A stretch of DNA of 63,289 bases, filler included, from Platydemus manokwari (Eukaryota): the NCBI GenBank assembly GCA_037951405.1. It is 5 parts of 5 records of this genome, joined end to end, with 100 filler letters (N's around TTAATTAATTAA, not from the genome) between each part and the next. Parts side by side here need not be neighbours in the genome. Positions count along the whole stretch, not along the records: positions 1 to 21,070 come from JBBMOY011444754.1; 4 more parts are not named here. One strand, given 5' to 3'. This document shows positions 9,885 to 62,059 of the stretch, one piece after another. Below the pieces are notes generated by a model. That model had not been told where the DNA came from. It was given only the letters and a program-made list of their open reading frames with translations, and did no database searches. A program made the translations under genes and the position numbers. The first letter of the stretch is position 1. Every line of letters begins with the position of its first letter.

Positions 9885-12270
9885 TAATATTTATTCATAA
9901 ACATTGATATTCGAGATACCCATATATTAAAACATGGGATTTACATGGTTCTGTCTTTCAATCGATCCATGAATCACAGTTCGCTAGTTCAATCATACAA
10001 TCAATTCAACATTTCATTCAATTCTGTCTCCGTCATCCAGTCGATGTTGTCTTAAAAATCTTCTTCCCTTATTTTTAAGGCTGTCTTTGTTGCCGTCTTT
10101 TTCCCGTATGGAACTTTCATTGCAGATAGCTCGCATTTATATTCGACTTTATGCGGGCAAGAGCTATCTTATTTATCATTTTCTAGTTCATTCGTAATTT
10201 CTTTAGGACTATATCGTTCGTCTGTGTTTGCCAAGTTCCGAGAACCCCTACAACAAAAGTGAACTATTCCACAGTCCAGTCGGGCCACTTTTTTTTATCG
10301 AATTTCGGAGGTCTGTGTATTTTTCTATATTCTTTCAAGCTGTTTCGGCCATTAAAGCAGGTTCGCCCATGGGGCATTTTACATCGAGTCGGATGATCGT
10401 GGATTTTCGATCATTTATTAGTTGAAGATCTACCATTAATTTGGATTCCGTAAATTGACATTCTTTCTCTACAAAGACTCTGTAATCAGTATTGTTAACA
10501 ATTTCCTTGACCAGTATGTCCATGATTCTGTCATGTCTATAAAGTACAAAAGAGTGGAGTGGTTTGCTTCAGGTGAAGACATGTGTTTGCGATTCTACTT
10601 CATATAAACATGGATTGTATTGTATACTCCTCCGTCATGCTTCGTGGTCCACAAGCCACCGTTTGATTTTGTTGAATAGAGGTAATTCGTTGAGTAAAAT
10701 TTCGGTACACCAAGTATTTTTTTCAGATATTTTCTTATCACCACATCAAGCTGCAGTAATCTACTATAAGCGACATAGTAATTTCTCATGTAGAAGGTCA
10801 CTTTGGCGTGTACGAACAACTCCAAGGCCCTTAATTTCTGCCATGGTAATAAAATGCATTTTTCCAGTTTATTAATCAGATTTTCCAAGTCGAAGTACAG
10901 TGCTTCTGTTGAATTATGTAGCTTCAAAGAGAAATTCACTCCTAGGTAGCAATAGTGCTCTTCTAGACTGATTGTAGGAATTTTCTCATTGTGGATCAGG
11001 AGTTCCGTCGCATTAGTACTTGCTCTTTGATTATGTAAGTGCCCACATTTTGAGGGCTTGAACTTGAAACTAAGTTGGAACCCGAGCGCCGATCATCATT
11101 TGGAGACCATTTTGGTTTTTCGCAATAATTGTTATGTCATCTGCATAGGCAAGGCATGAAATTCGATGATTTGCAATTATCAGGCCTCCAATACGACAGT
11201 TGTTCATTTGTACCAAGATTGGATTGATGGCTATGTTGAATAAAAGCATGGAGATCGGGCAGCCCTGTTTGATCCCTTATCAATTTTAATTGGTTTCGTT
11301 TCATAATTTCCGTCTGTGTAGAGACTTCTTATGATTCTGATGGCTGTTTTAGTCAATCTCATATGCTCAAGGTTTGTGAACATCGCTTCAAGATCTAATG
11401 AAGGAAAGGCTTCTTCGATCTCTAAGAATCCGATGTGAACATTATCGATATTTTTCTTGCTGTGTTCTTCTATAATGGCTCGAAGTAAAAAGTTGTGTTT
11501 GGCACATCCGTCATTTGGACCTAGCCTCTTCTGGAGTGGATGTATTAAGTTGTTTTAATCAATCCAATTTTTCAGTTGTTTGTACAGAATTGTTATAGCT
11601 GCAGTCGAACAGAGCAATAGGGCGCCAGGAGTTGACTTGATGATAGTGACCTTCTTTCATTGGTTTCTGTATCATCAATGTTGTATATGTTTTCCATTCC
11701 TCTGGTATTTCTTGGTTATCTAGACATTTTGTGAAAAATTTGTGTATGATTTTTGTCTCTGGATCTGCATATAGAATATCTTTATAATTGATCTTGTTTT
11801 TTCCAGGAGCACTTGGGTCCTTTTTCAAAGGGTTGTATAAATTGTTTCTGGTTCTATTATGCTAAAGTCAAAAATTTTGGCTCCTTTTAGTAACTTTCTT
11901 TAGTGAACAAAAATTTTTACATGCTTTCGTACATGATCCTTCACAATCTGGAAGATCTGCTTTTTGCTTCTGTTTTTCTTCAAAATGTTTTTCGAAGCCT
12001 TTTTGAATAGGTCGACAGTCAACTTTTGTGTATTGGGTGGCTAATTCAAAGGAAGCATATGGGGCGTGGTTAAACAGTCTCCTTAGTTTTAGGTCAGTTT
12101 CACCTCTTTTTTCATCATTAGCTCTACCCAAGTATGTGTTACTTGATGATTTAATAGTGCAGACACAGCGAATAAATTCACAGTATTTGCCAAACGTTTC
12201 ATCTACTGTTTCATTTGTAAAGTTGTTAGCGACTCCTTCTGCTAATGATTTCCTGATTAAGTAAAATTCA
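9885..12270 (-). mobile_element. Decayed, 5'-truncated non-LTR retrotransposon of the RLE group (R2/R4/NeSL-like): RT plus restriction-like endonuclease
   Basis: Minus-strand motifs in order across frameshifts: SAPGKNKINY, IPEEWK...SWRPIAL, HPLQK...GCAKHNFLL, GIKQGCPISMLLFNIAI, LAYADDI (YADD at 11136-11147), KPSKCG, YLGV, GGL. These are followed by RHDRIMDIL...VDLQL...LDVKCP...EKYTDL...FVVGVLGTW (RLE PD-(D/E)xK). AATAAA lies near 9890 at the 3' end. There are multiple stops and deletions. Confidence 0.9.
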
Positions 12271-13860
12271 CGCTAAATTTTAGCTTATGCATATGATAAT
12301 TTTCTTGTTTGTATGCCATTTAATTAAAAATTAAAACAAGGTTTCAAGTAAAATATAATTTTTTTTAATCAATTCAATACCGACGGAACGTTGACAGTCA
12401 TCACGATTTCTGCTGATGGCTGTCTCTGAATTGGATATCTGTGTGGTAGTTAAGATAAAATTGAGTTTGAATTGAATTTATTTATTAATTTTTCATTATC
12501 CCAATCAAGAAGACGGAAATTGCGAGCTATTGAGCTCATATAGATATGGTGATTTTAATTATTTTTTTAATATTCATAATTTTTATATGACTTCTTGTTT
12601 ATTGTGCTTATTTTTTTTATTTTCACTGAATTTATTTCTTATTATCATATTTAAAATATAAGAAAGTATAATACAATTGTAAATAAATTGAAGTTATATA
12701 CAATGAGTTCATGCTTAGTTTGGATGGAACTCTTTTCTTAATTTTCCTTTGAAGTTTGTGATTCATTATATACTTGCATATTTTCCAGAATTGAATTATA
12801 CAGCTTGGATGAAATTCGAGCAGCTGGGTTGCGAGAGAATGTTTACAAATCTCAGATAATTAAATATCGTTGGAACGAAGAAGAGAGCTGTTTCAACGGC
12901 TATCGAAATTTAGTTTCGTGATCAGCATAGAAAATATCGTTTTCATGAAAATAAAACCAATGAAAATACTCCATTAAAATCGATGGTAAGTAGAGTAATT
13001 TCCTACGAAAATCATCCCCTGCTTTTGTTTGGAAAAGTGAGAGGATTGCTTCGTAGAATGATTTTCTATCATGTCGACAAATAGTTTATGAATTAATGTC
13101 ATAGAAGGAGACACGAATTGAGAATTTTATTTTTAAAATTTCTACGCTTAAGCAATATGGGAAAATATGTTTTAATCTAGAAATACTTGGAAAATGTATT
13201 TTATTTGAATAAATATTTTGTTCGTCAATGATTCTTCATCTAAATTAGAGACTGCTAAATATGAAAATTAGAATTATTCATTCTTGGATAAATTGTTTTT
13301 CAATAAAGCCAAATTTTTCTATAAGATGTCGATGACATCAATTGGCTGAATCGAAATAATTTCAAATTTTTTATTTAATTTGTTGAAAAATCTTATAAAT
13401 TTAGTATATGGGTGTGCTATGATAACAAGTTTGTGTTAAGATTATAATTTGTACATAACAAAATAAATAATATAATAAAAACACAATTATCTTGCTATTG
13501 TGATTTGTGTTAATTCTGAAATTTGAATTAAATATATTTTCTTTTCCCATTTCATACAATTCGAAAAATTATTGATTGATTCATGATAACATCTGGATTA
13601 ATGAATAAATATTATTTTTTTTAAGCTAAGCTCTATTTAATGTAAAATTTTTCTCGAATTGATTTATAATATTTTAAATAATTTTAATCGATCATTAATA
13701 AACCCACTTTGTCGTATTCAATTAATTGGATTTGTGATAACATGACTTATAAAGTGATTTAAAATCAATCCGGAACATATGCCATCAATAAGATGAGCTT
13801 GTATAATCAATTCATCGAAATGACAGTGATCATTTTCCATACCAATACTACTAGCCACTA

Positions 13861-17089: not shown

Positions 17090-17922
17090 TCAGCTGCTCC
17101 GATCATAAATTTTCTGCTTTCTTGGAGTTAATAAAGAACCAATAGGCTTATTGAACTTTTTCGAATTATTCATATCTGATTTATCTAAAGTTTGTTTTCC
17201 TGTTACCACTTGGACTAAGCTGATTGGTGCTGGTTCCCGAATACGGACCGATTGCGATTTTCGAGTTTGATTGTTTGTTTTCGTTTGATGAAACAATTCC
17301 GTTTTCATTTTATTCGGATCCAATGTCAATGAGGAAAAATTAATACTTGTCGATATGCGTCCATTTAAGTAAACGGAATCTTTATTTTGTACCATCGATT
17401 TTTCTGATATCACCGAATTGGCGAGACTTTTACCGTAATTCGTGTTGGAATGATTTCGAATGTCTTTTCTTTCTGACGAAATTGGATTCAATGATTTTGA
17501 TCTCTCATGTGATTGAATTATCGTTGAGTTTTGAATGCGTTCCGATTTGGAATTCGATTCATTATCCTTTGTGACTTTTGGTCTCTGATAATAACGTAGA
17601 GTGTTCTCAAATTTGATTTCTCGCGAAAGAGTCAGAGCATTAGTTGAACCATTGTTTCGACTATTATTCGGCTTTGAAGATAATGTCAATGCTGTCGATG
17701 TCTCAGCTGGTGATTTCTCTTCGTTTCTATTACAATTAGGTGACAAACTAGTTGACCGATATCTGGGAGGAATCCAAGACTTGAGACTAGTGAATGCTGA
17801 AACGCGACCTCGACAAGAGGTCATTCCTTCAGCGTAAATAATGGAGAAAATACGTTGATTATCTAATGGTAATAACGATTTTTTGGATTTCACACATTTT
17901 TCAAAACATTCAACGGCTATTA
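17090..17922 (-). CDS. Large terminal coding exon (about 277 codons, Ser/Asn/Lys-rich, likely disordered) of an unidentified gene
   Basis: The acceptor tttatttctag at 17923-17924 opens a phase-1 frame IAVECFEKCVKSKKSLLP...YDRSS* that is continuous with the 267-aa ORF. No internal stops, in very AT-rich DNA. Confidence 0.7.
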
Positions 17923-17990
17923 CTAGAAATAAAATACAACGTTGTATTAACTATCAAATATTTAATAAAGTCCTGATAAAAATACTGAAA

Positions 17991-18084
17991 TACTCCAGAA
18001 AGATATTAATATATGTTAAATTTTAAAGGAAAGTCCTTACTCCAGAAAGATGATAATATATGTTATATTTTAAAGGAAAGTCCT
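17991..18084. repeat. 47-bp tandem duplication (2 copies)
   Basis: tactccagaaagat..taatatatgtta.attttaaaggaaagtcct at 17991 and 18038. Confidence 0.9.
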
Positions 18085-19413
18085 TTCACTATTATAAATC
18101 TATGGATGAAAGGCGCATTGAATCTTTTGATTCAAATTAATATCGTCTCAGTAGTTTAGTGAAAAATATTGATAACATTAATGAAAAAGTGATGAATTTA
18201 TGAATGTTCTCGCGTTAACTGACTTCGCTATATAATTGTGATTAAAAGCTAAGAGAAAACACTTAAATTGTATCTCAAATCATGACAATCAAGAATTGAA
18301 AAAAGCTATCGTTAAATTTAAATAAATAAAGTTTTGAGCTTAAGTTAAGAAAAAGGGTCCTTTAACCCAATTTTAAAGTAATGACTTTTCGTGAGTTTTT
18401 GATATTAAAATTTATTTGTAATGATTTTTTAATGAAATTTTTACATAAAATTCAATTTTAGATTTATAACCAAAATTGAACTCTAACAATCAAAAACCAT
18501 GTATTCGATACCCGCTACTATTTTTGGTACTTTCAAAACATTCATCGACAATTTCTATGACAACACTTAGTGCTGGAAATATATTTCTGTTTTAAGATAT
18601 TTTTTCAATGGCGAGAAATCTACAGATTTCGTTGTATCTCAATTAATAATTTTTGAATTGTTGGCTTTTATTTTAATAAAAATTGTCAACATTTGTTGCT
18701 TATTAGTTTACTAATAGATATAATTTTGTGTATATAATTTTTTTTGTGTGAGCCCAATGCACCAAATGTACTCTATTCAGAATGTCGAAAAGAGACAAAG
18801 CTGAGTTGTTGAACCTAGTCCTATTTGAATTTTGAAAATTATATTTGTGGTATTTTCATCTGTACGATTTATTTGATTTGGATCAAATTTTCATTTCATT
18901 ACAACATCGACAGGTTTGAGATCTATGTATTCAATCTATTAAATAGATAATAATATACTTATTTTGAGAGACAACACAAGAACCTTGTTCCTGGAACTTC
19001 TCAATAATTTAGAAGTCACTTTTTCATAAAATAACTCTAAAAGTCTTAGATATCATTCCAAATGCTTCTAATGTTAAAAGAAGGGGTCCTCGCTAATTTT
19101 CAAATAATTGCATTTTTACCTACTTTGACCAGTTTTTCTAATAATTAATTTTAAGGAGATTTTAAAAATCCTATGCACGTATTATTTGATTCTGTATATC
19201 TAAAATTTTACTCAAATATTTAAATAAAAAATTCAAAATGTTATTAAAGAATTTAATTAAATAATCTATATACACTCCATAATTTTAAAATTTTATTTTA
19301 AAACCCTTTTTTAACTCTATCCCATCATTGTACACCATTGTTTTTACCTATTTAAATTTCACATAAAATATATCTCTAGTAATAATATACAAATAAATGA
19401 AAATCAAATGTAA

Positions 19414-20260
19414 TGTTACAGATATGGTGTTATAATTATGACATAAGCTGTTTTGCGTTCTCTCTGTGCACTCACATAACCACTACAGATAATTCAACTT
19501 CTTGCGCACTCTGCTCTTCAATTGTACCCTTGAATTGTGAGGCTGAAATTTTTCGTTTTAGATTTGTGTGGTCCTTTAAAGTCACTGCATTTAATAATAC
19601 AATTGTGACTTCGTAAAAATGAGACTGGGCAGTAACTCTGTTTTGCCTTCTATATTAGTGTAGCGCCGTCTGCCTAGCAGCTGTTATGTCTTGAATAGCA
19701 TGACGGTTGCTGTGTCATTTTATCGGTAATTATGTTGAAGATACTCTCATATTTTCAAAGTTCCACTGTGTAATCTTCGACCACACGTGGTACTTTAATA
19801 AGTCCGTCGGATAAATCTTTTTCCACTGTTCTCCTTATGCAATCTCCTGATGTTCCTATTTTGCCACTGCATGTGACTGATTTTGTCCAACTCTGCTGCG
19901 AACGTTACTTTCGAGTCGATCCATAACCTTTTGTGAATTAATGCATCCTCATGTGCATTTGACGAGATTTCTACGCTTCATGTTATGAGTTTGGTGTCGA
20001 GCATGGTGGTAAGACTTCACGTTCCACAGTAATACTGAAGCACTGCTTTCGTGACTCGGCATTCTCGGATGTCTACTCCGTAAAAATTCAATTCTTGATA
20101 TATGAAATATGTCTCTTTTTTTCCTCTCGTAACGTTCATGATCGAAAATTCCATGAAATCGACCATTGAGCAGACTTTTTAATATTTCAGATTTTGACAA
20201 TCACACGCCATGAGTAATGATGATTTTCCGATTAAGTCGAATATCAAGAATAGTTTATGG
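19414..20260 (-). pseudogene. Decayed viral-type envelope glycoprotein, chuvirus/xinmovirus G-like (N-terminal ectodomain part)
   Basis: Manual translation: LFLIFDLIGKSSLLMACDCQNLKY*KVCSMVDFMEF...YFIYQELNFYGVDIRECRVTKAVLQYYCGT*SLTT...VEISSN, then a frameshift, then SVTCSGKIGTSGDC...RVVEDYTVEL*KYESIF...PSCYSRHNSC*ADGATLI*KAKQSYC. Cysteine spacing and the (A/G)YDC, YCG-x-x-S and G-x-x-x-x-x-G-x-C motifs follow the pattern I recall for chuviral G and its retroelement-captured copies. Confidence 0.7.
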
Positions 20261-20834
20261 AGTGTATTGAATGTTTCCCCATTCAATCTTCCTAAATCCT
20301 CCGTCAGTACGTGCTGTGTTTTCCCTTATTTAGTCCATTCTCCTTTGGTTTGGATAAATGGCCTCAGATATTGATCAGCTGTCTGGTCATACTGTTAACC
20401 TCAATTTGAAATTGGCTCATGTTGGCCCATGAGAGCAGTATCACCTTGTTTACTAAACAAGTGATGGCCAATTTAGCTCCGGTCTCTGTAAGAAGTTTAT
20501 CGAGTAATTCTTGAATTAATTGTCTTGGATCGGTTGTGTCCATATTACTCATGATATGCCTCATACAGAGAGTAATATTTTATTTCTACTATCAATGATT
20601 CGTATCTCGTCAAATCACTTTCTGGTAAGCGATTATTTCTTGGTTTCATTCCCTGAGCTAAGGTGATTAGATATTTTCCCATTTTCGATTGAGATATCGT
20701 TTTTGAGATATCTACATCGCTAAGTGTTTAAGTAACCTTTTTGAGATGGTTGATTAGCGGCTGGTTGTCCCTTCCCGGTCGGTTTTGTAGGAAATGCACC
20801 GGGTTGGCGTTGTTTACAAATCAAGAATATCGAC

Positions 20835-21070
20835 TGTGAGGTTTAAAATTTAAACCGAATTATATTAAATTTAATTTTTTAAATTAAAAAAATATTATAT
20901 TAAATTAAATTATAATTAATTAATTTTTTAAATAAAATTTAATAATTTAAAACAAAGAATATTTTTAATTAATTATATTTAATATTTATAGTGCTCAGAC
21001 CTGTACAGTAACCTCTGTACAGGTTTTAAAAAATTAATTATGAAATTTAAATGTGTTTAAAAATATGTTT
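20835..21070 (+). mobile_element. Probable LTR 5' part (TGTGAG family) running into the gap
   Basis: Starts TGTGAGG followed by an extremely AT-rich tract, like the LTR 5' ends at 16588, 32100 and 33773. Confidence 0.45.
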
Positions 21071-21170
21071 NNNNNNNNNNNNNNNNNNNNNNNNNNNNNN
21101 NNNNNNNNNNNNNNTTAATTAATTAANNNNNNNNNNNNNNNNNNNNNNNNNNNNNNNNNNNNNNNNNNNN
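21071..21170. other. Assembly gap with artificial linker TTAATTAATTAA (21115-21126)
   Basis: 44 N, a palindromic 12-mer giving TAA in all six frames, then 44 N. Confidence 0.97.
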
Positions 21171-21270
21171 TATAATGTAAGGTTATTGATAAGGTTATTG
21201 ATTATGTCATTCCAACCAAACAGAATAAAAATTAAGGCTTGTTCACACAAATCTTCCCTACTATCTTAAC

Positions 21271-21297
21271 GCTCATTTCATACCGGTACACCTGATA
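21271..21297 (+). mobile_element. Mariner-type terminal inverted repeat remnant
   Basis: Reverse complement is TA-TCAGGTGTACCGGTATGAAATGAGC. It resembles the TIR that ends the mariner transposase fragment at 32370-32394. Confidence 0.5.
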
Positions 21298-21825
21298 TTT
21301 ATTTCATAAACAAAGGATTTTAAGATGACTCTGGCTAACCAAGATTCCAAAGCTTGATCTGCATGACAAAACAGAATGAAATCTTTATTTATTTAATTTC
21401 ATAAATTGTGATTCTCATTTTTATTTTTGACGTTTTTTGATTGGACGAAAATCAAAATATTGATGAAGAATTAGCATTTAAACTCAAGGAAGATTGTTCC
21501 TCACTATCATTTATAGTTCAAAGACAGCACTGTAATGTTTTATAAAAATGACTGGGCTTCCTGGTAATTCCTATTTTAAAAAACACCATATATTTGTGAC
21601 ACCAACTCGTTTCTGTAATTCGGATATCTCGATAATAAACCTTTAATAATTGACAATATAATCACTTTATAAAAAATATTAATCAGTTAAAACAGAGACC
21701 TCGAGCCATTTTATTTTAATATCCCATCGAACGTTACTCTCACATCTCTCATATTCTATCAGCAATTATTGGAAAATCTATTTACAGCACTTTTATAACA
21801 TATATTATGAAGTTACTTTTTATAG

Positions 21826-22415
21826 AAAACAAACTTCGGTTAGAGTTGTTCATTGAGGAAAAAGATAAACTTTTGGAAAAGTATGTAAAAATTTTCATGT
21901 TTACACTCTACTGGATTCTACATCTAGAATAATTCAGCTGGAAAACAATATAAAAAAGCAGAGCGATTTATACTCAAAAAAATGTCGAGAGCTCGATCAA
22001 TTACAATCCGCTATATTGGATCTCGGTAGAGAAAATCAGAGTCTCCAAGTCGACCAATTAAATTTCTGTATCCGATTATAAATTTATCGATTATTTTATA
22101 GATATCAAAGGAAAAATTAACCAATCGTCAGTGGATTGGTGATGTGGATGCTGTAGATTGTTACACGTGTCACAAAAGTTTTTCACTCACGTTACGCAAG
22201 GTAGTTATTGGAGAAATATTAAAATAATACCCATTTTTGAGCAGCACCATTGCCGTAGTTGTGGCCAAGTTTACTGCCAGGATTGCTCTTCTAAATCTGC
22301 GAGTCTGGCGGCGTCCCGAAATCCAGTGAGGGTATGCGATGCGTGCTACATTGAAATCCAGTCACATCGAAAAAATAGCAATGTTTCATCAACGAGTATC
22401 GGTTTGCAAATGTGA
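21826..22415 (+). CDS. EEA1: Early endosome antigen 1, last four exons (coiled coil plus C-terminal FYVE finger); 5' part not found in window
   Basis: Exons 21826-21880, 21928-22048, 22102-22200 and 22245-22415, with phase-consistent GT-AG introns of 47, 53 and 44 bp. The protein ...[27 protein letters not shown]...[29 protein letters not shown]...PVRVCDACY matches the EEA1 signature (LGRENQSLQ directly before a terminal FYVE with WxxD, RKHHCR and RVC). AATAAA near 22445. Confidence 0.9.
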
Positions 22416-22569
22416 CATCGATGATTGTGGCTAATATTTCATAATAATAAATATTTATTTGCTATTTAATTTTTTCAATGAGTTGATGGCGTTTATTGAA
22501 AGAGAAAATGGGAAAAAGCATTAAAAATGAGATACAATTTTGTTCTTTTATTCAAGATTTCATTAATAG

Positions 22570-23150
22570 TTTAAGCCGCAACTACGTTTTAAATCACACA
22601 TTGAAAATTAAGTGACGAGTCACAACACAATTATTTACATCACTATAAATACATAAATAATTTAATATCTTGTGATAATAATTTATAAAAAATTTTAAAT
22701 TTCTAGACCTTCATCTACCTTTCTTTAAAATCTTTGACACTTTATATGCATTCCTAATTATCTCTATTAAATTCTGTAAACATTTATCTACATGAAAATA
22801 TCTATGTCTTCTTCGTATTTTATGTATTCTTCATACTTTCGATACGTCTTTCTATATTCACTTTATTTTCTTTATATTTTCCATACAAATTCTCTATATC
22901 TTATTTATATATATTTTCAATGTTTTCTATTTATATTTCTCATTCTTTATTATGCTTATTATACTCTCCTATTCGAATCTAATTACGTGGTCGCCATGTA
23001 AACCGCTATTATTAAATAAAAAACGCATTGAAAATCAACAGAAAGTCACAACACAAAATCATATATTTAACCACAATTATTTAAACAAAACTAATATATT
23101 TTGATAATAATTTATAAAATCTTTTAAATTTAGATTTCAAAATCCTTACA
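22570..23150 (-). mobile_element. Internally deleted LTR retrotransposon: 5' LTR, PBS, about 290 bp internal sequence, partial 3' LTR
   Basis: The 5' LTR at 22997-23150 (TGTAAGG...GGTTTACA) is immediately followed by TGGCGACCACG (22986-22996), complementary to a tRNA-Arg 3' end. A second LTR homologue lies at 22570 to about 22700. Flanks aatag and aattg give a 4-of-5 TSD match. Confidence 0.75.
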
Positions 23151-23499
23151 AATTGCTTTGATTTTAAAAAAAGAGATCATTTAATTATGGCAAGTAAATC
23201 TGAACATTTTAATAATTTTATGGTCAATTTGACCCGGTTAGTTTTTTGAAACCAACTAAAACTTTAATAATTTGAATACTTATACTAGAAAACTTCATGA
23301 CAGTGTTGAAGGTTTAAAAATTCTAAAAGTTTTAGTTAGATCGCTCCATGGTTTGACTCGAAAATGCGAATGGAACCAAATTTAAAACTTTTAATAATGA
23401 CTAGCAAAAATCAAAATGACGTATTGTGAAATGAGATTCACCTAAATCAAATAAATTATCAATTTCCGCTATCGAATCTGTCAATTGTCAAAGATAAGA

Positions 23500-26400
23500 T
23501 GGCAAATTTCTTTGAAGGATGAAAACAGACTCGAAAAGCAATTCATTAAACTACAATTTAAGAAAAAAACAATTTTCAACTAAAGAAAATAGGTAATTCA
23601 AGAAAACGTGTTCAGAAATATAATGTGTATTCAGGACAAATAAACATGGGCGAGCTTACTTTCTTAAAAGTTTGGGTAAATCAGATATAGAGCATAATAT
23701 ATCTTGTAACTGAAATGGTTATTAAAGAATTAACTACTTTTGATGCAGTCAGATATGCAAACTTTTGCGAATTCTGTCATGCAATCAGTATCGCTGATCT
23801 AGCAAAAAGAAACGATAAATGCAAATCCAAAAAGGAAAGACTTTACAAGATGCATAAACTAGGAGAAAGACTAAAAGAAATCTCGCAACAAGAGTCATCT
23901 GAATTTTCCACTTACTCTATTAGCATTGCTAAAGAGGCCATTCGCCAAGGTGCAAATGCTGTTATTTCAAATAAGGAATCTTTCACAATTCCTAAAAACT
24001 ATGCCTTGACAAATGATCCGAGGTGGAAGCAGAGATCTCCAAGTTATGCAAACTGCTCGGGGAAAGCTTTACCTCAAAAGGTAAAGTTAAGAATGCCACT
24101 ACATCTGAATTAAAAATACCAGATAACACAGTGATCCAGGAGAATCAAAAAATACCACCTGAGCCGGAGGCAAATACTCAAATCAATGAATCCCATCAAT
24201 CAGAAATGCTAGATAGTTTAGCACCCAACAACACATCAATTACAGAAAAAGATATCACAAATGAATACAACCAATCACCAATAAAAACTTACGAGAGAGG
24301 AAAATCAACAATGCTGTCAATATCCCTGATTTGGAAAAACGAAACAACTTTCTTAATCAACAATTAAAGAAACTTAATATGGAGAATCGTATTCCAGATA
24401 TTTTGGATGCTTGTCATACTATTTTTGCTGAATGCAAGCTTAACATTCGCCAAATTTCTGACAAACCTCTTCCGAATTCTCTGATTCTTCCAAATATTGA
24501 ATTGAAACAAATATTTCAAACTTTTCCAAAACTGGCAAAATACATGTTACTGTATCCAACAGCCTCAGATTCCGAAATTTCGAAACTTCTTGATGAATTG
24601 AAGTCAAATTCCAATTATCCGAAACACATAGACTATCAATCTTCAAAATTCATTTCAGCAAAATTACCAAGATCTGACAATCATGTATCTAAAGAATCTG
24701 ATCTTGTATGGAATATCGGGGGTTTCGACCTACTCAATATTTCTTTCTATGATAAAATCTTAAACCAAGCACTGCAGACTGAGAACAAATTTCAAAGAAT
24801 TATTGAGACCATCTTCCACACTAATACTCGATTTATCAACAATGAATTATTATATGAGCCCATCTTCAAAACAGACTGGGAAAGAAATCTAATTAGTAAC
24901 TCCGCGCTTCTATTATTAGGTAAGAAGCGAGTCGAACTATACGCTGATGATTACCTAAAATTTTCTCAAAGTGTTTTACAAAACTGTGTAGAGAACACTT
25001 ACCTGTGTCAAATTGTAAGAAACATCAGAAGTCATCTACAAACATCATCATTTTTTCGAATAGTCAGGGAATCTTTGAATCTTACTATAAAAAGTGCCAA
25101 TGACTGCTATAATGAATTCATCCAAAAATCTTTTCGCAGCTGCAAATCAAAAAATGAGAAATTATTCAAAATTCATGACCTTAAACAACGGCTAAAAGGC
25201 ATTCAGCAACAATCAGATCCTGCATTCTCCGGTACTGCTATTAACATTATTAAAGATGCGATTTGACAAAGTGCCAAGGCAGTCATTGCAAATGAAAAAT
25301 CGTACACAATTCCTCAAGATCGTCCTCTTTCAATAAATCGTTCAATTGAAATCGAAATAATCAATATATGCAACCATATTAGTAAAAAGTCAAAGGCGAT
25401 AAATGATAACACTGCGTCCGTCACGAACGAAATAATCATCGCTTCAAACTCAGGACAATTTATAATTTCAACAGAGATAGTCACTTCATCTCAATTTACT
25501 GAAATCTCTACACCAACTGATGTAATAAACGCTGCAGCAAAATGCATCCCAACTAGCGAAACATCAATTATAGAAGAAAATGTACCAGTTGCATATTCAT
25601 CAACAAAAATCTTGCTGGATAAAAAATATTGCAGAAAGTCATTAGGCAATATCAAAAAGAGACTCAGACCGACAAAATTATCTCTTCGTAGGCATGATTT
25701 TACTCAATCAACCAATCAATAACTGCTTGTGCCTGCACCAGCTGATAGCACACCGTCCACCAAGACTGGTGCAGAATGCACTACGCCCAAACTTTAGTGC
25801 TCAAACATATTCTGTAACTTCGATAAGACAGCTTGGTTCACTGATCAAGACCTCAACAACATTCTACAACTGATTGTTTCTGCACCACAATTCAGTTATG
25901 TGAATCCGTTGTTTGAATCGCACATTATTGCTGAAAGAGTTATCGATCCCAACTTTTTCAGCAATCATTCAGGCTCCAGTATTGTTTTCATCTCAGTTAG
26001 CATCATCAATAAACACTGGGTTCTATTTGTCTCGGATAAATTCAAAAACCTCAATTATTGGACTGATCCAATTGAAGACATCTACGAAATAATCCAGTCT
26101 CTCGTGATATGCATCGACTTGCATATTCAATTCAATAAACTTCTCTATACAAAACATGAATTTGAAATGTCTTCTCTCTCAGATGTTCGTTTCCAGAACA
26201 ACCAACACGACTGTGGGCCAATGGTATGGTTCATCAAATTGTCAATGGGCTAAGCTTATCTAACACCAGCGTGTCATTACAAGAATTCCGACACTTATCT
26301 CATCAATATAATCTCAACAAATCTGATCGGCTGCATTTTCTTAAATTAATTGGAGGAGGAACAACTATTTCAAATATCAAATCATTGATTGGCAATCTTA

Positions 26401-27871
26401 TTAATTCAATCAAATATTTATTCCAAGACTTCCAACACATTTGTTCTGGACTATGAACTGATTATCAGTATGTTAAATGGCAACCAAGACAACATACTCG
26501 ATAACGTTCGTTTATCCAAGTTTCGAAACATTGAACATGTCATTGGGATCAGACGATAACTTAATGAGCCATATCTGTATACAATTACAAAGAAAGATCA
26601 GCACTGATGTATAACTTGCTTGGAAAATCAATCATAAATGATGGTCTCGATGATGGAATGATTTTTGTTAAGTTATTGAACTCTTTCTTTGTTAATGGAT
26701 CAGCTATATTAACACCAGGATCCAAGCCATTTATAACGCCATCAACCGTTATGGATCTCACAACAATCTTACAGGCAGTCATTGGAATCATATCTGAAAA
26801 TATAAAGAAAATGGTACCATTCTCTAAGGATTTCATGCTGGAATTTTCAAGTGAATAAGAATTCAATGCCAAAGAGAATACTCGGTTGGTGAATAGCAAA
26901 ATGAATTTTGATTCCATCATGAAATTTGTGGAATCATTGAATTTGAATATGACATTCTCGATATTGGATCCAACAAGTTGTATGTCACTGTTTGAAGGTA
27001 ATTAGCAATACCTTACCACTTACCATAACATATCAACTTTGAAAAAATCACGAATCATATTTTGTCTAATATTCCCACCGGGCTTCCATCTATACCTGAT
27101 TATTGTGGACACTGAAACGTGGGAATATTATATCTTCAACCCAACATAGGTCAAAGTTAATCAAGACTTGACACTGTATGCATCGACTATCTTGGAGCAC
27201 TTTTCCTATTTTCTCTTGGAAGAAACAGTCGAGATTAAGAAAATAAATGTCCGTATCAAGTGAAGGGATCCGGTCTTTTTAGTCAGTTGTTGATCTGTGG
27301 ATACATTGAGCACTTTGTTCTTGATCAATCTCTTGAAATTATCGCCTTGGATTCATTGACAAGTAGAATTAACTCAACGCTAAAATTGGTCAACATCTGC
27401 ACCAAGACTTGTATCAAAACACCTGCATACATTGTCAAGCTTCCAAACTATAAAGAATTGGTTGAAAAATGCGACAAAATCATCGAGTCCATTCAAGATC
27501 TATCAGCAGAAGAAATCAACAACGTTCTCATCAATAACGTTCTAGTCCAGCCTAAATCAATGAATAACAATCCAAATCCCTATCTTGGTGAACAACAATA
27601 TACCCAACCGATAGAAAAATCGAAACTTCGTCTGCTATTTCGAACAAAAATGAAGATGACTATCGATAAAATTCTTCATTCATCTGACACCGATTTAGAA
27701 ATTCCATCGATTGAGAATATTTGTTAAACTTTCAAAACCAATGCTCCAAACTTCTCTGATTATCGACTACTTCATTCAATTACTCCGGTGACTAAGAAGT
27801 TGAAGGTCAATGAATTCACTTGTGAAGAAATTGTGGCCAAATTTAAAAAACTAAAAAATTGTGCACCTGGT
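23500..27871 (+). mobile_element. Decayed, rearranged NeSL/R5-like non-LTR retrotransposon ORF: unannotated N-terminal modules, two Ulp1-like protease domains, start of RT
   Basis: Ulp1 (C48) motifs AWFTDQDLN (25834), HWVLFV (26014), TDP and QNNQHDCGP (26194-26220). A second degenerate copy FDSIMKF..LDP..HLYLIIVD..FNP..CPYQ..LLICGY lies at 26903-27330. RT region-0 KLRLLF...EEIV.KFKKLKNCAPG ends at 27871. A Ulp1 protease upstream of RT is an established NeSL-clade feature. The 5' boundary is approximate. Confidence 0.75.
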
Positions 27872-28279
27872 TTCGGATTTATGCTGGATTTAACAACAAT
27901 ATTATAGTTCATTGTGGAGATCTTATCTGATAAAACAAAGAAAATTATACCGTTATCAAAGAATCTCATGCTGGAAATATTAAGTGATCAGGAATTCGAA
28001 ACTAAAGAAAATACTCGCTTGGTCAACAGTAAAATACATACCAACTCTGAAAAAATCACGAATCATTTTAATTGTTTAAGTAATACAAATTATTCAAACC
28101 AATTAATTCTCAACCTTCTGAAATCAATGGAGGACAAATTCAATATTGCTGTCTCAAACCTCGAAACGGAATTTCCAAATTATAAAGCTAAGTTAGAAAA
28201 CGAGGCTTTAAAAACTGAAAAAGACACATGTTTTCAAATTAAAAGTAATTTTTACAGGCTTCGGGTATTAAATTTAATT

Positions 28280-28689
28280 AAGATATTAAATTTCAAAATT
28301 TTAAAAATGATATTAAAAAAGATACGGCTGAATTTTTAATTAATAATAATAAAAATTCAATTAAAAATAATTCAGAAAATATTTGTTTAAGTAATCCACC
28401 ATTATTTAAACATTCCAATATCAATTCTGAAATGGCTAACCAAATCATTGAAATGATATCAAATTTAAATGCGAAATTTGATAATTTTGAAAAAAATCAA
28501 GATATTAAATTTCAAAATTTTAAAAATGATATTAAAAAAGATACGGCTGAATTTTTAATTAATAATAATAAAAATNNNNNNNNNNNNNNNNNNNNNNNNN
28601 NNNNNNNNNNNNNNNNNNNNNNNNNNNNNNNNNNNNNNNNNNNNNNNNNNNNNNNNNNNNNNNNNNNNNNNNNNNTCAATTAAAAATAA
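28280..28689 (+). repeat. Direct repeat with 219-bp period (73 codons) spanning an N gap
   Basis: 28280-28356 is identical to 28499-28575, and the sequence after the gap (tcaattaaaaataa) continues the repeat unit exactly. Confidence 0.85.
28576..28675. other. Assembly gap (100 N, no linker)
   Basis: Read directly. Confidence 0.98.
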
Positions 28690-30222
28690 GTTACCCGAAC
28701 TCGGTACGAGTTCGGGTACTTCCCGACCAGATGAATTTGACAAAACGAAACAGAAAAATAGTATAGAAAACACCAAGAAGAATAGAGTTCCTACTGACAA
28801 TGCTGTTCAAATGCACAACTCAGACGCATCAGTTAGTAAATTAAAGTTTTTACAGGACAGTTCGTTAACTCCCCCTACGGAAGTCAAGAAAACACAACCA
28901 TTTACTGGTGATTCTGGGAAAAAATTACCACCTTCAACCTCATTTCGGCAAAGGACATCGCCTCGTAAACAAAATCCCAAGATTGAATACCAACACAAAG
29001 ATTATTATTTCGAGACAAAAAAAGTTATTTCTCGTCAAATAAATAAAATAGAGCTAATCAAACTTAAAGAAATTCTCGGGAATAAGTGGATCGAAACTGG
29101 ATACTTGCCTAATGAAACCATGTATCAACATTCAGTCCGAGTGACAAACCTACTTAAAAAACTAAAAAGCCATCTTAGATTAATGAGCGTAACACCCTCA
29201 TGCTCCAGAATATATATGAGCAAAAACAAATTCTTCATAGAACAAGGTAATGTAACCGGAGCATACCCACAAAGACGAATTACAATATTCAATCATGGGT
29301 TGATTCGTAAATGCTCCCTTAATTCAGAGAACGAGATTGCTCCACAAGCAATGAGTGAATTTCTTTTTGCAAACTTTTTTGAATTTAGTGAGGCAGTCAA
29401 TATCGCAGATTTGAAAAAAAGAAATACATTCTTAAACCAACAATTAAAGAGTCTAAAAGAAGAAAGTCGTCTCCCAAATGTCTTTGATGTATGTCGAGCT
29501 TCATTCATCGATTGTAGACTTCATATACAGCAGATGTCGGAGAGAGCGTTAACAGAAACTGAAGAGGCTCCTACAGACGAATTAAAGAACTTATATAAAA
29601 GATTCCCAAAACTTGAGAATTTTGTTCTTGCAAATCCAAACGCGTCGGATACTGATATGTCTGTGCTTCTTGATGATTTGAAAGCCAATTATAAATTTCC
29701 AAAACACATAAACTACAAATCATCAAAATTTGTGTCTTCAATTTTACCAAAAAATCAAATCAAAGAATCAGAAGAACCTGACCTGGCATGGAATCTTGGA
29801 GGTTTTGACCTACACACAATTTCACTCAGTGACAAAGCCTTAAGTCAAGCTCTGAATATAGAAAATAAGTTTCAAAGAATAACCGAGTGTATTTTTTATA
29901 TTAATACTCGGTTCATTAACAATGAACTACCATATGAGAATATTAGCAAACCAGACTGGGGAAGAAACTTAGTTCGTAATTCTGCACTCCTGCTCTGTGG
30001 CGAAAAGGAAGTAGAGGTAATTTGTGATGATCACATCAAACTATCCGAAAAAGTTTTAGAAAATTGTGTGGCTAATTCATATTTATCTCAGATCGTCAAG
30101 AGAACCAAGGCCCATTTAGAAACGGCATCAAGTGTCAAACTAGTAAAGGAGTCGCTGGATCTTAATAAAAAGGGTGGCAATGACTTCTACAATACACTCA
30201 TCAAAAATCTTCTCAATAAGTG

Positions 30223-30322
30223 NNNNNNNNNNNNNNNNNNNNNNNNNNNNNNNNNNNNNNNNNNNNTTAATTAATTAANNNNNNNNNNNNNNNNNNNNNN
30301 NNNNNNNNNNNNNNNNNNNNNN
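30223..30322. other. Assembly gap with TTAATTAATTAA linker (30267-30278)
   Basis: Read directly. Confidence 0.97.
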
Positions 30323-43900: not shown

Positions 43901-44463
43901 AACAAAGAAACTCAAATGATCTTAGTTTTGGGGTTTCCAAAAAGTAACATGTTAAAAACATTTTTGAAAATTTGTTGATTGTTGTAACTCACACGTCGGG
44001 TTATTTATAAAACAGTAATGCCTAAGCAAGTGAAAATCCAATAATTTGAAACTTCATAATGCTCAAAGAGTTAAGCAATGGGTTCTTCATTCGAATTATC
44101 ATGCCTTTCATTTCATTCTCATTAACAAAGGATTTAACGAGAGTTAAAAAATCTTGAAATTAAAATTATTCATTATCTAAATCCAATTCTAACAGTAATA
44201 CATCATCTTGAAAATTAGTCACTTTAATATAGGAATTAAACACCTTATGGTTTGGAAATAAATTAACCAACGTTCGTTCTTTTTTATTTGCTTTAAAAAT
44301 ATCAACATGGCCCTTGCCGACTTATTTCATTTTATATTCCGGATATATTTATCAATCATACTTTATCAAACATGATATTAAAATTAATATTTAATATAAA
44401 TAATCGATATATTAAATAAGGAAAATAATTTGAAGATAAAAATAAATAATTTTTGGAAAGAAA

Positions 44464-46485
44464 ATGGGAAGAAAATGTTACAAACGAAGAACTTCGAAAA
44501 AACGAAAAATTGGCCGATCTTTCAAGAAAAGAAATTCAAGGAGAAGCCGAAACCAAACAAAAACAAAATCAATAAAGGATATAAATATAAATATATCGGT
44601 AGATTTAAATGATTGCAGCAAACTGGAACCAAATAAGGAATCCATGACAACATGTGATTCTACCAATCAAAATACTCAAAAAATGAGTTTAAACGAGAAC
44701 CATGATGCACAAAATGTTCCAAACACTTCAAATACACAACCAAGTTGTACAGTTTCAAAGGCAGCAATAGAAACTCGAAAAAGAAAACTCCCATATAACT
44801 TTAGAAATAAATCTAAAAGGCAAAGAAATATTTTCAAAACAAGAAATCAACGATGTAATTATAAGAAATCTGTTAAGAGAAAATCTCGCAGGAGTCCTGA
44901 TAAAAGATCTTGTGATTCCAGGGGGAATTTACAAAAAACTAACGACAATAAAACAAACGAGAATAAAACTAATAATGCTGACAAATCCGTTGCAAATACT
45001 TCACAAGAAAATTCTACCTCGCTGAAAACAAAGTTTAAACTCGACGAGAAACAATCGTCGAATAAAAGCGATGAGATAACAAATAAACCCACTAATTTTC
45101 ATGAAACCTCTAATAAAACAATGAATCACAACGAAAATTTTAATAAACCATCAAATTTTTTTGGGAGTCTAATTAAACCGACTTATTCTAGTGGGTGTAC
45201 TTTTAAACCTGTTAACCAGCCTGGAAAAACAGGAACATTATCGAATAATTATGGGGGTTCGAGTCAATCAATGAATGTTAATAAAGGAGCAGATAAACTC
45301 GCTGGTAAAAATGGTGACTTTAGTAATAATATGATTTTAGATAAGCCAAATATTCTTAATAAGATAGTTAATAAACCAATTAATAATGGTAGCTCAAGCA
45401 AACCGCTTATTATTAATAGAGAGGTTGATAAATCAGCTAGTAATAATGAGACAATCAACATGTCTTCAACAAATCAAGAGACATCAAACAAATCTGACGA
45501 TCAAAATGAAACAATTAAGAAGTCAACAAATGATTCTGAAAAATCCTCAGCTGCAAATGAAAAGACAAATAATGCTTTGATTTCATCTTCAGCATTAAAA
45601 CCCGAATCAATTAATTCTTGCAAACAATTGTCAAGTCAGTCCAATTCTATTCCAGTACCAAGTTCATCAGAATCTAAAAACAGTACTGAATGTTCATCTA
45701 CAATTAATAAACCTGCCGAAGAGAATAAAATTAATGTTGACAATACCCAGATTAAATCAAGTTGTGACAGCGAGAAACAAAAAATGATTGCTAGTCAAGA
45801 TAAACCTTGTCCAAATCCGATAACGTTCAAAACGGGTTCCTGTGAAACTAATACAAATCCTTTGACTCCAACCACATCCACTAATGCAGCTCCTTCGTCT
45901 GTCACCGCGATAACATCAACGAATAATCAATGCATAAAAACTCAACCCAATACCACGTCGACATGCCCAGAAAATTTGACAAAAAGTAACTGTGCACCTT
46001 CAAATACTGTTCCGATTGTTATGAATAGTTGCCATTCATCGAATTCATCTTGTACCAATACAACTGCTCAAGTCACAAACGAAAATCCACCGCCTCAAAG
46101 TACTACAACTATGTGTACAAATAAACCCCAGAATACACCAAAATGTGAAGAAACGAAACCATGTCAAAACAATGCCATCGATGACAATTCGTCGACAAAA
46201 ATATGCCCGCCAATCGAAGATAAAAATAAAGATATCGAAACCAAATCCTGTGAAGTCAAAACGGAACCGACCGCGCCCGCCAAAGAAGGATGTACTTGTA
46301 CTTGTAAGAAACTCGAAAACAAGCCCAAAGAAAATCAATCGGTTTTCCAAGAAAATTGTCCCATCTGTTCGAAAAACAAATCCAACAACAATTTGAAAGA
46401 TAAAAACAAAAACAAAGGTTTGGAAAATAAAAATTTATTCGGCACTCCAAAAACAAAAGTCAATCGAGATGGGAAAATTGAATGA
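44464..46485 (+). CDS. Intronless 673-aa low-complexity orphan protein (basic N-terminus, Asn/Ser/Thr-rich middle, Cys-dotted C-terminal part)
   Basis: Uninterrupted 2-kb ATG-to-TGA ORF in very AT-rich DNA, with AATAAA near 46612. No domain recognised. Confidence 0.8.
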   Translation: MGRKCYKRRTSKKRKIGRSFKKRNSRRSRNQTKTKSIKDININISVDLNDCSKLEPNKESMTTCDSTNQNTQKMSLNENHDAQNVPNTSNTQPSCTVSKAAIETRKRKLPYNFRNKSKRQRNIFKTRNQRCNYKKSVKRKSRRSPDKRSCDSRGNLQKTNDNKTNENKTNNADKSVANTSQENSTSLKTKFKLDEKQSSNKSDEITNKPTNFHETSNKTMNHNENFNKPSNFFGSLIKPTYSSGCTFKPVNQPGKTGTLSNNYGGSSQSMNVNKGADKLAGKNGDFSNNMILDKPNILNKIVNKPINNGSSSKPLIINREVDKSASNNETINMSSTNQETSNKSDDQNETIKKSTNDSEKSSAANEKTNNALISSSALKPESINSCKQLSSQSNSIPVPSSSESKNSTECSSTINKPAEENKINVDNTQIKSSCDSEKQKMIASQDKPCPNPITFKTGSCETNTNPLTPTTSTNAAPSSVTAITSTNNQCIKTQPNTTSTCPENLTKSNCAPSNTVPIVMNSCHSSNSSCTNTTAQVTNENPPPQSTTTMCTNKPQNTPKCEETKPCQNNAIDDNSSTKICPPIEDKNKDIETKSCEVKTEPTAPAKEGCTCTCKKLENKPKENQSVFQENCPICSKNKSNNNLKDKNKNKGLENKNLFGTPKTKVNRDGKIE

Positions 46486-48850: not shown

Positions 48851-49125
48851 TGCTAGCTTAGTTGTTCCGTATTCCCACATAAAATAATAATGACTAATAT
48901 TTCAAAATAACCGCTACAAATTAACCATCTTAAAATTTTAACAAGTGCAATACTAAATTTGAAAGCGTAAGGATTAAAATCATTTTGTAAGTTCAATGAT
49001 ATCTTAATAAGATTGTTATAGAAACATCTTACAAGCTGCATTAGAAAATTAACAAGTGGTCATTCATGATTTCTCATCTCGAGTCTATTAGTTTGTAGTT
49101 CACTTAGTGAGAACGATCGATCATG

Positions 49126-49447
49126 AATGGCAGATAATAATAAATCAATATCAGCATTAATCATCCAATCAAATGGCAGATAATAATAAATCAATATCAG
49201 CAGTAATCAACCAATCAAATGGCAGATAATAATAAATCAATATCAGCATTAACCAACCAATCAAATGGCAGATAATAATAAATCAATATCAGCATTAATC
49301 AACCAATCAAATAGCAGATAATAATAAATCAATATCAGCATTAGCCAACCAATCAAATAGCAGATAATAATAAATCAATATCAGCATTAATCAACCAATC
49401 AAATAGCAGATAATAATAAATCAATATCAGCATTAACCAACCAATCA
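49126..49447. repeat. Minisatellite, 7 x 46 bp
   Basis: Unit aat(g/a)gcagataataataaatcaatatcagcattaa(t/c)caaccaatca starts at 49126, 49172, 49218, 49264, 49310, 49356 and 49402. Confidence 0.97.
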
Positions 49448-49510
49448 AATCAATATCAATAAGACAAAAAACATCAAGCAGATAAAATAAAACTCAATAT
49501 TTTATTTTTC

Positions 49511-51989
49511 TCAAGCCTTCGTCGCTAATATTGATTCGGCTTCATCAATTTTGGCAAGCAAAGCACGAACATCCTCATCAAGTTCCTCCAGTTTGGAGCT
49601 CGTGAAATTCTTCATGACTGCTTGAACTGATTTGACAGCCAATTTTGCTGACGAATGATTGACGTCATAATCGATTGATCTGTCCACCAATCGCAATGCA
49701 GCAATAATCACTCGTTTGCACTGTGCCGGATCGAGCTCCCAGCCGGGTAAACACATGCCATGGTGAGCTCTCGACAAGCATTGGAGCACTTTGACCTTGA
49801 TTTCTTCTGATTGGTCGGCTTCACGGGCCAGTAAATCGGCATAGATTGTCCAGATTCGAGGATCTCGCCCATCCTTGCTAGCGATTCTCGCAAAAAGCTC
49901 CTTCAGCTTTGGAAGCAGCTTGTCTCCACCCTCAACAGTGCCATCAACGAACGCCCTCACCATGACGGCCAGCGTTGCTGGATCGCGATGTTGCTCCTTC
50001 AAATCCATCACTCGGTGGTAGCCCTTGATCGTCATGGTGAAATCACCGACAGAGGCCGACACAATGCAAATGTTATCCCAGACTCGCCAATTCTCGTAGC
50101 TGTACTTGGTGGCTTCCTTGAGCAGTGCCAGCGCGTTTTTCCTGAAAAAGAAGAGCCATCGTGATGCACAAAGCAGGAAAATCAATTCTTACGGCTCGCC
50201 AAGTTCGACGTGAGCGCTCGCGCAGTTATTCCAGGCCTCGAAATTCTAAAAAATCATCAATCGATCGACCGAACACGACACCACAAGGACTTACATCGGG
50301 CTCCAATCGTAGGCACTGCTTGAATCCATCGATCGCTTTGCGGTAGCTCTTCATCTGCAGACAGCAGCAGCCGTACGTGAACCACGTGTTCACCTGGAGC
50401 GTGTTGATGCGCAACGACGATTCGAAACATTCGCTGGCTCGCTCGTGATTCATGTCGACGAACATGAAGTGTATCGCCAAACTGCGCATCGCTCTCGCTG
50501 ATCTCTCCTTGGAAACGATCCAGGCGCGTTCGTAATGCGCTCTGTCTTTCGTGACGTCACCCAGACAACAGAGCAACTCAGCGGTTTCACCATCGGCTTC
50601 AATTCGCTCTCTAATCATTCGCTCGGCACGCTCACGCTGCCCAAGATGGATCAAGCAATCAATAATCGCTGGCCACTGATCCCAGGGCAAAAGCACATCG
50701 AGAGCGCTCTTTATCATGCCCATCGATGTGAGAACGCGAGCCAGTTTCAGCTGAAGCTCCCAAATGGAAGGCATTCGAGACAGGAAGAACCAATCGCGTC
50801 TGTGCTCGGCAGCCGGAATTGAATATGCGAACTGATTCGACAGTTCCTCCAGTTGCATCAGCGCTCGCTCAGTTCGTCTTGACGATTTCGTATTCAGCTG
50901 GCATCGCTGCAATAGCGCATCGCTCACCACTGGCCAAGTCGATTCTCTCGAGTTACCACTTCCGAGAGCTGTGGCGAGAATCGTGCTGCATTCCTCCATC
51001 GTCACTTCGTCTTTGGCGCGAGATAATTTGTGGATTTCGGCTTGTAAAACGAGCAACGCCTGCTCGGCTAAACTCGGTCTCGAGGTGACATTGAGATCGT
51101 CAACGAAGCTGGTCTCATCAAGAAGAACCTCATCATCGACCAGGTGATCATTGGGCAGATTCTTCGAGACAGATTTATTGAGGATATCATTGATGTTGCT
51201 GGCGCTGGAAACGTTTTCACGACGAACTTCGAGATATAACTGGCTGACATTGTCCACCTGGAATCGTGTTCGCTTGCCGAGAGCTCCTTTCAATTCAGTG
51301 GAGATGCCCAACAGCGATTGGCATTGATGGAATAATTGCTCGGAAAGGCGATATTCGTAATAAATCAAATGGAGATGACTCGCCAAAATCAATAATTGAA
51401 ACTCGTCCAACTCGTCAATCAAGCCGTCAGTATCGCTTTTTTTGCATTCGACAGCCTGTTTGAAGCATTCTTGCATTTGAGATTTCAATCGGCTTGAGCG
51501 CTCATCACGCAACGTTGCTTGGTGGAAATAAATGCATTTCAGATAATTTAGGCAACTTTTATAAATCTAATAATCATTATTTTTATTGGATTTCTTTTAC
51601 AAATAAATACGCTTTTTATGTTTGTGGTTTGACGCATTTTTTCCGAGACACATTTGGCAATCCACAACAAAATCAGGCCTTTGGTTTTGACAAATGGCAC
51701 TTCACCTTCGCATGTCAAATCGTCTGATATGAATTTTAAAATTTCTGATGAAGCATTTACTGATTCTTCAATTTTGCTATCAACGGGACCCGTAAAGTTC
51801 AACTGCAGAAACAGTTCGATACAATTGTCACAAATTTGTGATGGAGTAAAATTACTAAAAGGTATTTAGCAATAAATTTTTCATATTAATTTTAAAGAAC
51901 CTTTCTAGAATTAAATTAAATATAATTGAATCGTCTAGTTTTGATGACAGTGAAACTGTTCTAATAAAATTTAAAAATTCGTCTGACAT
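49511..51989 (-). CDS. TTC27: Tetratricopeptide repeat protein 27 (Emw1 family), 5 exons, 762 aa
   Basis: Exons 51901-51989, 51611-51854, 50295-51566, 50193-50245 and 49511-50141, with phase-consistent GT-AG introns of 46, 44, 49 and 51 bp. Family signatures FLQLNFTGP, LKGALGKRTRFQ, ERALMQLEEL, SARAMRSL, WFTYGC, EAWNN and YENWRVWDN. Confidence 0.93.
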
Positions 51990-62056: not shown

Positions 62057-62059
62057 TTT

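Follow-up and report, generated by a model that had tools for sequence, protein, structure and literature searches.

A dead, truncated chuvirus-type envelope gene fragment, likely derived from a planarian-type GAG-ENV-POL Ty3/gypsy element

Burro and GYPSM1 are giant gypsy-like planarian elements (Jurka 2007; Grohme 2018, as described by Arkhipova and Yushenova 2019, PMC6431247), and the published Burro layout runs in one frame in the order Gag ... Ubl, BCL2-like, Env (with matches to mononegaviral fusion glycoproteins), and PR. The same account describes decaying Burro fragments with stops and frameshifts in Dugesia japonica, and an anti-apoptotic role has been given to the IAP region of Burro1, as cited in PMC13465017. 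Elements with a gB-type env and the order GAG-ENV-POL were reported from Platyhelminthes, Nematoda, and Bryozoa by Chary and Hayashi (eLife 2026, PMC13524379), including nine flatworm elements, of which the six from Schmidtea are present at 1-215 copies; env patterns linked to the host were reported there, and the main text carries no mention of Bcl or apoptosis. Outside the flatworms, mosquito BEL/Pao elements called Anakin carry a chuvirus-derived G (Dezordi 2020, PMC7642597). The six G endogenisation events described by Dezordi 2023 (PMC10084718) fall in insects, a crustacean, and nematodes, none of the six being in flatworms, and Table 1 of that paper lists a chuvirus from a flatworm host.

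The locus examined here lies within a window of 63,289 nucleotides, by which we mean the whole stretch of DNA that was analysed, filler included. The whole remnant forms a GC-richer island with sharp AT-rich edges at 19,450-20,850 (1.4 kb; GC 38.5% vs 29.7% for the window). One Logan contig of run X1 is identical to it over 19,321-20,852 (0 differences, 0 gaps); as run X1 may be the source of the assembly, this match is not independent support and shows only that the breaks described below did not arise from a scaffolding slip. The fossil env is carried on the minus strand in two pieces. Piece A (19,879-20,253), delimited by Pfam, phmmer, tblastn, and a stop census, is a pseudogenised leader and N-terminal part of a gB-type/PF24664 fusion glycoprotein with three stop codons (at 20,181, 20,019, and 19,980). 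Piece B (19,608-19,868) continues in another frame 3' of a single frameshift positioned between 19,879 and 19,868, contains three further stop codons (at 19,757, 19,676, and 19,652), and was recognised by BLASTP as collinear with piece A in the relatives P0010, P0013, and P0005. The first frame holds MACDCQN, IYQE, VDIREC, YYCG, and VEIS, and the second holds GDC, VVEDY, and a three-cysteine block. A hydrophobic leader (20,209-20,262, minus strand) precedes the first cysteine motif, as judged from the sequence, the alignments, and its position within P0010, P0013, and P0014. Intact relatives carry this leader within a longer reading frame, so that it likely serves as an internal signal or anchor and not as an N-terminal signal peptide.

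A sequence-only reading of this DNA had proposed a hydrophobic leader followed by a collinear series of such motifs on the minus strand, broken by stops and one frameshift, over about 230 codons. All of these motifs are present in that order at 20,280-19,416, divided between two frames, and the count of lesions came to six stops and one frameshift within about 212 codons. The proposed span holds for its larger part, with homology from 20,253 to 19,608 (about 215 codons), but its last stretch does not: between 19,607 and 19,400 the scores of all five relatives compared are like background (100 to 355 of 578 control windows equally high), which leaves a tail of the island at 19,414-19,607 (minus strand) that contains the word TGTAACA and has no detectable env homology. 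In the other direction, the feature probably extends upstream beyond the coordinates first given, to about 20,850. Homology ceases at 19,608, where piece B ends at about 36% of the P0010 env length, so that about 64% of the env, membrane anchor included, is lost from the fossil; the C-terminal parts of P0010, P0013, and P0014 have no counterpart anywhere in the window. At 36% of the env length, the fossil lacks an open frame with a full ectodomain and a C-terminal membrane anchor. Six stops, a frameshift, and the missing membrane anchor exclude a working protein, and this copy is unable to make a fusogen.

The family assignment was investigated with both pieces. For the piece A peptide (P0001), PF24664 was the top Pfam family (E 0.0018, 16.8 bits, profile positions 7-123), but below the cut-off of 27 bits, and the piece B peptide (P0002) alone gave no Pfam match. 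Searching P0001 against 1.84 billion proteins with phmmer returned nine matches at E 0.001 or better (best 2.6e-12). Eight of the nine pass the PF24664 cut-off at 33.8-303.9 bits, and the ninth, P0011, was dropped as a spurious match to a tandem repeat protein. Membership of the fossil in PF24664 thus holds through its relatives. This assignment is further strengthened by piece B, which never served as a query for finding them, and yet matches the next collinear segment of P0010 (E 1e-11), P0013 (2e-12), and P0005 (9e-11) at 33% identity by BLASTP. When the eight relatives were compared with the whole window by tblastn, each reached its best E-value (7e-8 to 2e-28) at this locus only, at 22-47% identity to the fossil, against a best E of 0.29 for four reversed proteins used as a control. 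With P0001 as the query, a word-indexed homolog search gave 33 candidates, none reaching E 0.1, and a search of PDB sequences gave 0 matches; an IMG/VR scan with P0005 found no locus, and Rfam reported 0 hits over the whole window.

Six of the eight true phmmer matches come from contigs of 767-1508 bases and, being fragments, offer little context, and the two long ones, P0010 (1582 aa) and P0013 (2296 aa), both place env ahead of aspartyl proteases in the same frame. In P0010 the env occupies residues 146-761 and the proteases follow it, and in P0013 CCHC knuckles lead into env and then into four aspartyl protease matches, giving the order Gag-Env-protease in the latter and Env-protease in the former, with the window copy truncated on both sides. 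In both proteins, env is followed by a tandem run of three to four aspartyl protease domains with no RT in the same protein, and neither an RT nor an integrase was seen within the P0010 and P0013 sequences. A second homolog search added P0014 (860 aa) and P0015, two matches among 7999 candidates scored. A metagenome scan with P0005 gave 113 pattern matches but one locus, its own contig L001 (positions 1-1508), on which a Bcl-2-like piece (3-305) stands directly upstream of a frameshifted env; L001 is a second decayed member of the family of the fossil.

The claim that the motif order is that of a chuvirus-type glycoprotein was borne out by these profile scores and by the structural model of an intact relative, P0014. 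The mean pLDDT of this model is 47.6, with values of about 75-90 over most of residues 231-380. Foldseek matched it to herpesvirus gB, baculovirus GP64, and thogotovirus GP in the PDB (E 5e-8 to 1e-6) and to chuvirus G in BFVD (E 7e-23), where chuvirus, qinvirus, and xinmovirus G proteins were listed at 19% identity or less. From the model of P0014, the Env of the relatives is thus predicted to fold as a class III fusogen. Jingchuvirales G proteins and the EVEs derived from them share the PF24664 profile family and the class III fold with the fossil and its relatives, but the viral G proteins are at most 19% identical to P0014 among the matches listed. With 22-47% identity to its relatives, the fossil is much nearer to them than P0014 is to the viral G proteins sampled.

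A nearer counterpart was found among the published flatworm elements. By eye, residues 58-133 of P0001 and the Smed_errantivirus_4 env share 32 of 76 positions without gaps (Supplementary file 2, PMC13524379), and a 57-residue stretch of P0002 shares 19 of 57, likewise ungapped. The patterns YQE...EC and EDY.VEL..YE are common to the fossil and the six Schmidtea rows of the same file, again by eye, and are absent from the insect, nematode, bryozoan, and tunicate rows compared, which form part of its 230 rows. This manual row comparison places the fossil with the C1a-type Env of Platyhelminthes. Envelope patterns and their spacing are accordingly shared with the Smed_errantivirus_4 group (Platyhelminthes C1a, HSV/gB-type env, Ty3/gypsy), in which env stands before the protease, as it does in the long relatives of the fossil. 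The Smed_errantivirus elements are intact (PMC13524379), whereas the fossil is a 1.4-kb pseudogene with 36% of an env and no gag, pol, or LTR. The comparison with Burro is one of published layout and not of sequence: its BCL2-like-Env-PR arrangement recurs in the relatives and its decayed fragments resemble the fossil, while the giant size of Burro, its LTRs, and its cargo of BIR, MATH, and ankyrin domains (PMC6431247) are not visible in the fragment.

Just upstream of the env, a helical Bcl-2-like domain may persist as a decayed copy in two frames (20,328-20,520, minus strand), a tentative feature based on a frameshift-aware score. Against the N-terminus of P0010, the interval 20,281-20,800 scored 54, a value reached by none of 222 control windows. 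The score against P0014 was marginal (reached by 6 of 222), the signal against the L001 piece was absent (144 of 222), and the sum over the three queries was reached by one of 222. Pfam Bcl-2 gave no match on the upstream frames of the window itself, and the window locus was not among the matches listed for two-sequence and three-sequence HMMs of the upstream domain. Taken together, a decayed Bcl-2-like remnant upstream of the fossil env is somewhat probable. An integrase zinc-finger reading of the same frames, suggested by a His-rich motif, gave no Pfam match and was rejected.

The domain is clearer in the relatives. In L001, the open piece that immediately precedes env has Bcl-2 as its top Pfam family (E 3.9e-5, 24.6 bits, cut-off 31.4), and its atlas neighbours, none scoring above 0.89, are without exception members of the Bcl-2 clan. 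In shuffling tests the piece proved homologous to the N-terminus of P0010 and to that of P0014 (0 of 2000 shuffles in each case), and these two are homologous to each other (1 of 1000 shuffles). Residues 1-125 of P0010 match Pfam Bcl-2 at E 0.0071, and a motif near residues 106-113 resembles the BH2 region. As judged from sequence, therefore, two relatives (P0010 and L001) have a Bcl-2-like domain just 5' of env. P0014 gave no Pfam Bcl-2 match, and the region upstream of env in P0013 showed no similarity to the domain (43 and 423 of 1000 shuffles). A homolog search with an alignment of two of these N-termini recovered only its own two members among 1668 candidates, and a PDB profile search with that alignment returned no Bcl-2 protein among its 4 rows; the atlas search with P0010 1-125 was uninformative (best score 0.81). 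The model of the same residues is poor (mean pLDDT 49); the rows listed by Foldseek were Bcl-2 family chains only (E 0.26-1.3), and VIA-align placed no Bcl-2 chain among its top 50 (best Z 6.8). Bcl-2-like cargo was also considered as a novelty of this locus, which was given up, as such cargo is already in print (PMC6431247).

The flanks of the fragment were then set against the structure of a retroelement. No LTR, gag, or pol was detected beside it; searches of the window with the Gag, protease, and C-terminal env regions of the relatives gave no match (best E 0.25), and Pfam recognised no family, N or L included, in the three minus-strand frames of 17,900-19,420 and 21,171-23,270. The absence of N and L says little, because most such EVEs are G-only, and the absence of an LTR, primer-binding site, RT, or integrase beside the fragment is expected of an internal fragment. 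With no gag, pol, or LTR adjoining, the parent element has to be read from the relatives. As the word TGTAACA at 19,414, which had been likened to an LTR end, is found at 14 places in the window and lacks a partner repeat, it offers no evidence for such an end. On the 3' side, the remnant is abutted by an unrelated, highly repeated element (18,330-19,320) without a minus-strand Pfam match, recognised from run X1 depth: thousands of run X1 contigs match there, and their summed depth, which is not a copy number, reaches about 160,000 vs about 13.5 on the remnant. On the other side, a gap at 21,071-21,170 begins 220 bases upstream of the island, and the sequence beyond it may not be a true neighbour. 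Two run X1 contigs with a summed depth of about 780 match a short stretch at 19,584-19,719, with differences at 19,662 and 19,665, and may represent a multi-copy env relative or a chance match.

Considering these observations together, the fossil is best explained as what remains of a chuvirus-type (class III) envelope gene, now dead and truncated, that likely came from a planarian-type GAG-ENV-POL Ty3/gypsy element of the Burro or Smed-errantivirus kind, with a probable Bcl-2-like remnant, a reading to which we give a probability of about 0.88. Of the two origins first offered, a viral integration or the env of a retroelement, the second is favoured, the long relatives being protease-bearing polyproteins and the nearest sequence in print being Smed_errantivirus_4. 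The 'planarian' type would follow from the env type and from the host-linked env patterns reported in PMC13524379. The flatworm host first suggested agrees with the env type. The fragment is an ordinary one, because this kind of element is already described in planarian flatworms.

The intact parent would have been one polyprotein, in which the hydrophobic leader would direct Env to the ER and secretory pathway, with the Bcl-2-like domain remaining tethered on the cytosolic side. Entry of particles into neighbouring cells is established for Drosophila errantiviruses, whose env differs from the gB type; a class III Env would likewise mediate fusion with adjacent cells and give access to stem or germ cells, and apoptosis of the cell that makes the particles would be suppressed by the Bcl-2-like domain. 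The present copy would have been inserted by retrotransposition, then deleted in part or interrupted by other repeats, and left to neutral decay.

Among the alternatives, a directly integrated, non-retroviral EVE, formed when a host reverse transcriptase copied in trans the G gene of a free chuvirus-like negative-strand RNA virus, accounts for the PF24664 family match and for a fragment with no retroelement genes alongside; it also agrees with the modelled fold of P0014, whose best viral matches are chuvirus G, and with the flatworm-host chuvirus listed in PMC10084718. The closest relatives of the fossil were nevertheless not free-virus G proteins. Those with context are protease-bearing polyproteins, no stand-alone full-length G (about 650 aa) occurs among the nine phmmer matches, the identity of 22-47% to the relatives stands against the 19% or less of P0014 to any viral G listed, and the sequence 5' of env resembles the upstream domain of the relatives. 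Direct integration is therefore unlikely, and the framing of the locus as a negative-strand RNA virus fossil gives way to one in which its closest relatives are planarian-type GAG-ENV-POL Ty3/gypsy elements (PMC6431247, PMC13524379). A more specific version, in which the fragment came from a free flatworm negative-strand RNA virus whose glycoprotein gave rise to, or was sister to, the env of planarian errantiviruses, and which already had a Bcl-2-like gene next to G, is very unlikely; if true, it would identify the virus from which the Burro envelope module came, a source so far missing.

A BEL/Pao env like that of Anakin, or a separate capture of env in this host, was also considered. Mosquito BEL/Pao elements do carry a chuvirus-derived G, so that the broad glycoprotein family is the same and the carrier is likewise an LTR retrotransposon (PMC7642597). 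The stretch of P0001 that shares 32 of 76 residues with Smed_errantivirus_4, however, shares only about 9 of 76 with the env of mosquito BEL-71_CQ (both by eye), the superfamily and the arthropod host are different, and the env of the relatives precedes the protease, which is the published planarian gypsy order. The fossil env is thus not close to mosquito BEL env, and no pol, BEL/Pao or otherwise, is present beside it. Nor is an unrecorded capture supported, in that the element types of its closest relatives were in print in 2019 (PMC6431247) and 2026 (PMC13524379), and a BEL/Pao env or an independent capture is highly improbable. Retention of a solo env by the host, for a putative protein function or as a putative source of small RNAs against related elements, would suit a fragment that appears low-copy and isolated and has a precedent in the solo glycoproteins proposed to be antiviral in mosquitoes (PMC7642597), but the six stops, the frameshift, and the missing membrane anchor exclude a working protein. 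Such retention is extremely improbable. A fortuitous spacing of cysteines in AT-rich DNA, or membership of a cysteine-rich cellular family, might be read into the Pfam score of piece A, which alone is under the cut-off, and into the first word-indexed search, empty among 33 candidates, but is refuted by the phmmer, BLASTP, and tblastn matches with their reversed-protein control and by both frames matching the same proteins collinearly, leaving it a negligible probability.

Elsewhere in the window, a decayed Ty3/gypsy pol in three frames occupies 59,000-63,289 on the minus strand (RT E 0.01, RNase H E 1.5e-7, integrase zinc finger 6.2e-5, integrase core 3.1e-6), with its upstream part inside a long inverted repeat (about 61,350-61,890 vs 62,590-63,150, 80-90% complementary). 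This remnant, at 59-62 kb, was considered as the parent of the fossil and rejected, being 40 kb away and having no env match. A fragmented non-LTR reverse transcriptase lies at 10,500-12,300 (minus strand; RVT_1 E 0.032), which we take from its motifs to be R2/NeSL-like. Several broken ORFs with an internally repeated domain occur at 23,700-30,270 (plus strand), among them a weak Ulp1 protease match (25,798-26,250, plus strand; PF02902 E 0.072).

The remaining features of the window are of other kinds. An intronless, single-domain, animal-type angiotensin-converting enzyme (ACE) of 635 aa from stop to stop is encoded at 56,123-58,030 (minus strand; Pfam E 1.2e-191) and marks the host as an animal. 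A gene for a TPR protein, presumably TTC27-like, lies at 49,511-51,865 (minus strand) with a GC content of 49%, which is odd for the surrounding DNA in a window of 30% GC; its ORFs are only about 40 bases apart, which suggests very short introns. Near it, a tandem array of about nine copies of a 46-base unit spans 49,080-49,496. An ORF of 679 aa at 44,446-46,485 (plus strand) is of low complexity, has a basic N-terminus, and gave no Pfam match.

Overall, the fossil adds one more decayed fragment to a family already described in print, both in layout (PMC6431247) and in env type (PMC13524379). PF24664 matches in non-arthropod genomes should be checked for an errantivirus origin before they are counted as chuvirus infections. 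If the host lies outside Dugesiidae, the locus would extend the range and the age of the Bcl-2-plus-env module.
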